Of a DNA stretch of 64,000 nt, positions 25,645 through 25,830 are shown piece after piece (the first letter of the stretch is position 1; the number at the start of each line of letters is the position of its first letter). A program made the position numbers and the translations under genes. The notes beneath the pieces were generated by a model that worked only from the letters and a program-made list of their open reading frames with translations, did not search any database and was not told where the DNA came from. This stretch comes from Eledone cirrhosa (Eukaryota). The stretch is taken from assembly GCA_964016885.1 (NCBI GenBank), contig OZ024763.1, positions 25,668,001 through 25,732,000 of the forward strand, written 5' to 3'.

Positions 25645-25830
25645 ATAAAGATTTTTTTTCCAATTCCACCCCACCCGTCCCTCCAATCTATCTTATTTCT
25701 CATTCTTTCTTCTGATGAAGGACTAGCGTCTGAAACGTTAAGACCCCCTTCCTGCTATATCAAGCGTTAAACTAATATATTCCTTCCATATACTGTACCG
25801 ATAGTGTTGATATTTCTGTTTACCTTTTAC
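25645..25830 (+). mobile_element. short hammerhead-bearing element ending at (AC)n
   Basis: Colinear with 56483-56712 (-) and 62453-62680 (+). Confidence 0.75.
25708..25743 (+). ncRNA. minimal type I hammerhead ribozyme motif
   Basis: TCTT-CTGATGA-A-GGAC-TAGC-GTCT-GAAAC-GTT-AAGA; loopless palindromic stem III ACGU as in Penelope-associated minimal hammerheads. Confidence 0.75.

Follow-up and report, generated by a model that had tools for sequence, protein, structure and literature searches.

Dispersed copies with a minimal hammerhead motif in Eledone cirrhosa are probably 3' ends of a Penelope-like element

Minimal hammerhead ribozymes were described in the pLTRs of metazoan Penelope-like elements (PLEs) by Cervera and De la Pena (2014; PMC4209133), mostly as single motifs linked to truncated PLEs, and with cleavage in vitro that was low and dimer-dependent. 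For PLEs in general, the passages of Craig et al. (2021; PMC8557442) on insertion report a microsatellite bias without discernible target duplication, and describe partial tandems as a PLE pattern. The targets named there are (TA)n for Naiad and Hydra and (CA)n for Chlamys; for Neptune a microsatellite bias is proposed. Target duplications are reported there to be masked by such repeats. Work on an anole Poseidon element (PMC11167929) describes internal initiation, a hammerhead that is dispensable for insertion in vitro, and cleavage that is protein-assisted, no cut ends being reported in RNA-seq. In cephalopods, 190 Penelope-like families, given without names in PMC13282606, make up 6.83% of the Octopus vulgaris assembly. 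Here we analysed 64,000 nucleotides of Eledone cirrhosa DNA (GCA_964016885.1, contig OZ024763.1, positions 25,668,001 to 25,732,000 of the forward strand; hereafter the window), in which a preliminary description had noted a short, non-coding, ribozyme-bearing repeat.

Copies in the window and the extent of the family

Three main copies of the repeat are present in the window, namely copy 1 (25646..25828, plus strand, 183 bp), copy 2 (56488..56709, minus strand, 222 bp) and copy 3 (62455..62678, plus strand, 224 bp). Their pairwise identity is 90.2-90.8% over 184-185 columns, with E values of 1e-74 to 1e-95 in blastn within the window. Copy 1 is truncated at its 5' side 66 nt upstream of the hammerhead core, and the sequence above 56712 is flank of copy 2, not element. 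The leader is pyrimidine-rich (73% C+T across 62498-62561) and is followed by the core motif of a minimal hammerhead, so that the three well-conserved copies, the leader and the motif were all as the preliminary description had them. Its statement that there is no Pol III head also agreed with our search, in which A and B boxes were absent from 3/3 main copies and both present in a control SINE at 62882; this search covered the copies only, and the true 5' end of the family lies beyond them. ARAGORN reported no tRNA in the whole window.

In order to extend the comparison beyond the window, positions 56470-56860 were compared at 80% likeness with the reads or contigs of four of the twelve public runs listed: X1, which may be the window's own sample; X4, whose small size suggests that it is RNA; X10, the raw reads of a RAD library sampled by cut sites and bearing the same organism label; and X6, contigs of another organism. 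Matches numbered 10,810 among 17.1 million contigs in X1, 309 among 762,587 contigs in X4, 13,073 among 12.47 million raw reads in X10 and 7 among 23.6 million contigs in X6. The summed depth in X1 was 10^5-10^6, compared with 5-12 for the single contigs listed. Although summed depth is itself no copy number, these figures suggest a family of about tens of thousands of copies.

A common loose end lies at 56705/56709, with 840 and 696 X10 reads against 1,963 covering 56699, and the loose-end sequences agreed at 0.64 (56705) and 0.91 (56709). The same letters were found in 51 X1 contigs (agreement 0.51) and in one X6 contig, and copies 2 and 3 both begin where the X10 loose ends lie (56705-56709). 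Truncation at the 5' side thus applies to the window copies, and the family extends by 30 nt or more beyond them; none of the three main copies has the length of the family sequence, while their 3' end is common. The preliminary description had proposed to follow longer copies towards an autonomous Penelope element, and this extension covered those 30 nt. Since the family runs on in the reads 5' of both longest window copies, the unit of 200-230 bp given in the preliminary description was an effect of 5' truncation and had to be abandoned. The coinciding 3' ends reported there were confirmed in the three main copies, but the varying 5' ends only in part, as two of the three begin alike. Read coverage was roughly flat along 220 bp. 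Read depth ruled out that the element includes the 90 bp upstream of copy 2; over 56722-56777, upstream of this copy, the X1 depth drops from about 121,000 to 0-12. In one X1 contig of 3,942 nt, the 5' part of the element forms the last 178 nt, 81% alike, and this contig, whose length resembles that of a PLE, may be a long copy, because the longest window stretches without simple repeats are shorter than 1.5 kb, one tandem array aside. As to tandem arrangement, none of the four window copies (the diverged fourth is described below) is in tandem, but three head-to-tail joints were found in contigs, from 56648 to 56481 and from 56696 to 56489 in X1, and from 56627 to 56489 in X4; a pLTR-ORF-pLTR unit was not found.

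At the 3' side, copies 1-3 have the terminus TTTCTGTTTACCTTTT in common; an (AT)n run comes after it in each case, with ACAT(AC)n, CCAT(AC)n or (AC)n in between. The tract of copy 1, ACAT(AC)n and then (AT)n, abuts its 3' end (25829..25914, plus strand); that of copy 2 is CCAT(AC)n(AT)n (56460..56487, minus strand), and that of copy 3 is (AC)n(AT)n (62679..62712, plus strand). Because such a run follows only about 0.4-0.5% of non-microsatellite window positions (232/55,376 and 280/55,373), its presence at 3/3 copies is not due to chance. In the reads, TTTT is followed by ACA and then by T or C in roughly equal shares, and the loose 3' ends continue with (CA)n, (CATA)n or (TA)n after the constant ACA. 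No (CA)n was found at the 5' junction of any of the three copies; their 5' flanks all end in TA, and no flank repeats longer than 4 nt were detected around them. With TA in the 5' flanks and (AC)n before (AT)n in the 3' tracts, the (AC)n may be the target, or else a variable tail that belongs to the element and was placed in a (TA)n target. The proposal of a solo pLTR of a (CA)n-targeting Penelope element is consistent with our data in its pLTR part; its targeting of (CA)n is one of two readings of the 3' tract. We also observed a 16-nt piece on the minus strand at 62430-62446, ending in TTTTC and then (AC)n, which lies head-to-head with copy 3; a one-letter variant of it occurs six times in a tandem array at 43339-43815 (minus strand).

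The fourth, diverged copy (45232..45344, plus strand) has a leader of its own and a related hammerhead core at 45281, with 78-81% identity to the main copies over 81 nt (45262-45340). A tRNA-type SINE interrupts it at about 45345, and both the 3' tail and (CA)n are missing. Hence, of what had been ascribed to it, the related core remains but the shared leader, the tail and the (CA)n end do not, and the rule that the family always ends at (CA)n applies to three of the four copies and fails for this one. By eye, 28 of 30 letters of its leader are those of the loose-end consensus at 56620 of 90 X1 contigs; further loose ends lie at 56508, with joints from 56508 to about 56592. These features point to a putative sister subfamily, which would include the fourth copy and have chiefly the hammerhead and the terminal ~20 nt in common with the main family.

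The hammerhead motif

The motif predicted in copy 1 is a minimal type I hammerhead (25708..25743, plus strand), in which 25708-11 pairs with 25740-43 as stem I, the core CUGAUGA occupies 25712-18 and is followed by an extra A at 25719, and stem II (25720-31) leads to GAA and a palindromic ACGU (25735-38), with the predicted cut after U25739. Stem I has 4 bp, stem II has 4 bp and a four-base loop, there is no loop 3, and the triplet is GUU. Copy 1 is the only window copy that keeps all hammerhead pairs and core letters. In copy 2 (56605-56570) the motif is damaged, with U.U in stem I, G.G in stem II and a non-palindromic ACAU; in copy 3 (62558-62593) the core A9 is changed to G and stem II holds a C.A mismatch.

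Copy 1 agrees with the published minimal hammerhead pattern CUGANGA...GAAA plus an NUH triplet (here CUGAUGA, GAAA and GUU), as well as in its extra nucleotide separating positions 9 and 10.1, the A at 25719. The pair G10.1-C11.1 is kept as G-C by copy 3 and by the majority of X10 reads at 56582 (4,623/5,908), while copies 1 and 2 show G.U. Copies 1 and 3 have ACGU as the palindromic 15.2-16.2 stub and, where the pattern has a helix I of 4-5 bp, a stem I of 4 bp; both features are broken in copy 2. The motif is in sense orientation and near the 3' end, from which the predicted cut in copy 1 is 89 nt away; it is not terminal at the 5' side, where the known extent of the family reaches 138 nt or more beyond it. 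When the window was shuffled 100 times, the core pattern was never matched. Rfam returned no hammerhead among its 4 matches at 25620-25830, and no hammerhead family among the 150 matches listed of 311 for the window. The hammerhead fold of copy 1 was computed at -4.5 kcal/mol for the monomer and -5.7 kcal/mol for the dimer, compared with -7.7 and -22.3 kcal/mol for the respective lowest-energy folds. Several common read variants within the motif fall on CpG sites, and together with the damaged copies 2 and 3 these suggest dead copies in decay. A pile of X10 read ends at 56648-56651 was considered as a trace of ribozyme cleavage and rejected, for it coincides with an AATT cut site of the RAD library and lies off the triplet.

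Other hammerhead-like pieces occur in the window. A single-copy hammerhead of another type (45941-45990, plus strand), with CUGAUGA, a 4-bp stem II, a short closed helix III and a 3-bp stem I, lies within some 330 bp bounded by (TA)n tracts and is likely the end of another PLE family. A third hammerhead-like motif, with its core at 63354 and a 5-bp stem I, belongs to a single-copy piece with (TA)n at its end (63256-63422, minus strand), and its layout resembles by eye the Hydra type as set out in PMC8557442. A short inverted-repeat element in (TA)n (45615-45725; related pieces at 62719-62753 and 56833-56898) has CUGAUGA...GAAAC as a minus-strand core at 45679 and may represent either a MITE or a truncated PLE end in inverted form. 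Two long inverted repeats (42547-42660 and 50974-51130) each hold CUGAUGA...GAAA on both strands. In addition, the window contains a tandem array with a 112-bp period (53400-54760, minus strand), whose repeat is also dispersed, and the 3' fragment of a non-LTR retrotransposon within (TA)/(TACA)n (58656-59340, minus strand). The open 199-aa frame of this fragment has 52 relatives at E <=1e-10, whose full-length identity reaches 65%, and holds what we take to be zinc finger and restriction-like endonuclease motifs.

Coding matches and the origin of the family

A looser core pattern was found at 49 loci in metagenome contigs, and in 40 of them stem II has at least 4 bp, with differing paired letters. 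PLE-type coding matches (tblastn) accompany 8 of the 49, and five of these eight supplied the six seed ORFs, which were chosen by eye. At one locus (L035) a GIY-YIG ORF ends 676 nt upstream of the core (Pfam E 2e-5), its relatives, where named, being fish and amphibian proteins; at another (L041) an ORF with RVT_1 and GIY-YIG ends 1,772 nt upstream (Pfam E 2e-6 and 8e-5). At L039 we observed a PLE-type RT frame that begins directly behind the hammerhead. A further observation is that 22 loci within L002-L049 form one high-copy minimal-hammerhead family, mostly on Ga0208946 contigs, which represents host DNA in a metagenome. In the largest metagenome family an ORF match was found at 1/22 loci, many loci lying at contig ends, and solo ends are the norm there. 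The ORF-linked loci belong to families of other animals with no homology outside the core; they show the company that the motif keeps, not the parent of the Eledone family. Family-specific patterns gave 0 loci in metagenome, GTDB and viral contigs.

No PLE coding sequence was found in the window by tblastn with the six seeds (best E 0.21). A 49-aa frame through copy 2 and its flank yielded no protein candidate, the single match of a 55-aa frame of copy 3, to a tandem-repeat protein, was judged spurious, and Pfam found no domain in either frame. Atlas look-ups for the open frame through the copies returned no protein relative. This frame was also considered as the end of a Neptune endonuclease on account of an E-x6-L-x-T-x2-P likeness, scored with a profile of 43/65 homologues plus L041; the scores were 4.8-9.8 compared with 49-79 for true members, with ranks of 21-219 among 127,864 window peptides, and the candidate was rejected. 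Because ORFs elsewhere lie far beyond 138 nt upstream of the core, the absence of an ORF from the copies is uninformative.

We observed for this family a common 3' end, truncation relative to a longer sequence, high abundance and the anatomy of a hammerhead, and we consider the copies to be probably the dead 3' (pLTR) ends of an endonuclease-bearing PLE. The hammerhead in the copies is that of the published PLE minimal type, and an origin as a PLE end fits accordingly. The PLE protein would bind its own RNA and nick alternating purine-pyrimidine microsatellite DNA, and reverse transcription, presumably target-primed, would start at a fixed internal point, giving the common 3' end, while early termination would leave short pLTR ends. 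The parent ORF, with RT and GIY-YIG, may lie further upstream in rare long copies. A hammerhead without a closed helix III would be expected to cut only as a dimer of head-to-tail copies or with the help of protein, and solo copies would be dead and decaying, as several common variants at CpG sites may indicate.

Against this origin, the shared start of two of the three copies and the flat coverage also fit a short element of defined length. The family is possibly, but with distinctly lower probability, a non-autonomous PLE derivative of at least ~255 nt, beyond any window copy, which would be copied in trans by a PLE protein in the manner of Chlamydomonas MRC1 or of non-LTR retrozyme monomers. 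Its very high abundance, the roughly flat coverage over 220 bp, a known part without coding trace and a sister subfamily alike chiefly in the hammerhead and the terminal ~20 nt all argue for such a derivative, as do the non-autonomous PLEs and PLE-derived retrozymes already in print. The head-to-tail joint in X4 points the same way: it links the 3' end to a position 26 nt upstream of the core, defining a 142-nt unit, with a depth of 745.8 compared with ~4,400-5,500 summed depth on either side, in a single row. However, PLE 3' non-coding regions of 0.7-1.8 kb already explain the absent ORF, tandems are absent among the four window copies, long copies are hinted at by the 3,942-nt contig, and circle-making retrozymes carry canonical, not minimal, hammerheads. 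The X4 joint, absent among the nine X1 joints listed, may come from a tandem array, from a circle or from a single host transcript with high expression. An improbable further reading is that the family budded off a minimal-hammerhead retrozyme, a strongly transcribed head-to-tail unit of 142-145 nt (the end of the leader, the hammerhead and the tail), which would be cut as a dimer to unit-length or circular RNA, the dispersed copies being its non-autonomous offspring.

Both a PLE end and a non-autonomous derivative make the element PLE-derived. This differs from the SINE-like element of the preliminary description, with a ribozyme as its head, which would be moved by a microsatellite-targeting LINE of the RTE or restriction-like-endonuclease type. 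The three copies do lack Pol III boxes and end in a simple repeat, and such LINE fragments are present in the window (58744-59340). Nevertheless, the ribozyme is internal rather than 5'-terminal, the family continuing upstream of the window copies; the motif is a PLE-type minimal hammerhead, and the last 25 nt match no other window repeat, the 58744 LINE fragment with its 3' end among them. A discrete element headed by a ribozyme does not fit these findings, and we regard mobilization of this kind as very unlikely. Slighter still is the chance that the repeat is of unknown kind and its hammerhead-like letters incidental: Rfam gives no hammerhead, the predicted fold is not the lowest in energy as monomer or dimer, and cleavage is a prediction from the letters, but the pattern did not arise in shuffled windows, copy 1 has stem I as well as stem II fully closed, and elsewhere the core recurs beside PLE ORFs with other paired stem II letters.

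As read here, the locus represents one more high-copy PLE family, whose short ends are prone to being mislabelled as SINE or unknown repeat. With this family it can be tested whether (CA)n microsatellites arise from PLE copies or only receive them. If the 142-nt junction is abundant RNA, it would allow a direct test of PLE minimal hammerhead function in cells. A retrozyme with this unit, if true, would fall below the 200-400 nt of those animal retrozyme circles for which published tests exist, and would use a minimal motif without demonstrated activity in living cells to date.

Comparison with known systems

Our search of the literature, with Repbase and Dfam outside the comparison, found no description of the Eledone window family. 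Of six short family motifs sought in the supplement of PMC8557442, three had no match and three matched only in unrelated contexts, and motifs split across lines would escape such a search. The octopus Naiad and Hydra entries of that work were not matched by these motifs, nor by the hammerheads listed for them. Already in print are minimal hammerheads in truncated PLE ends, the microsatellite bias, non-autonomous PLEs and PLE-derived retrozymes.

The minimal hammerheads described for PLEs resemble those of the copies in their core, the extra nucleotide after position 9, the G10.1-C11.1 pair, the palindromic helix III stub, the 4-bp helix I and their mostly solo occurrence; in contrast, helix II has 4 bp here and 7-8 bp in the Schistosoma motifs. 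Non-LTR retrozymes, as characterised by Cervera and De la Pena (2020; PMC7229834) and by Li et al. (bioRxiv 10.64898/2026.07.22.740005), are likewise short and non-coding, carry a type I hammerhead, are related to PLE pLTRs and occur as dispersed monomers. They are, however, defined by tandem units, whereas the window copies are solo and truncated and their hammerhead is minimal. Among non-autonomous Chlamys elements, MRC1 of Chlamydomonas is similar in the likeness of its 3' end to a PLE, and the Chlamys clade is (CA)n-associated, but PMC8557442 places these elements in a green algal clade, mostly without hammerheads. The endonuclease-bearing PLEs treated in the same work (Neptune, Hydra, Naiad and Chlamys) share with the window family 5' truncation, a fixed 3' end, and a microsatellite bias with no clear target duplication; the head-to-tail joints found in contigs may correspond to their partial tandems. 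Naiads differ in being without canonical hammerheads, in the description given there, and the Hydra hammerheads, including that of Hydra-1_Obim, differ in a closed helix III of 3-4 bp and in other letters. By elimination from these descriptions, Neptune is the likeliest clade.
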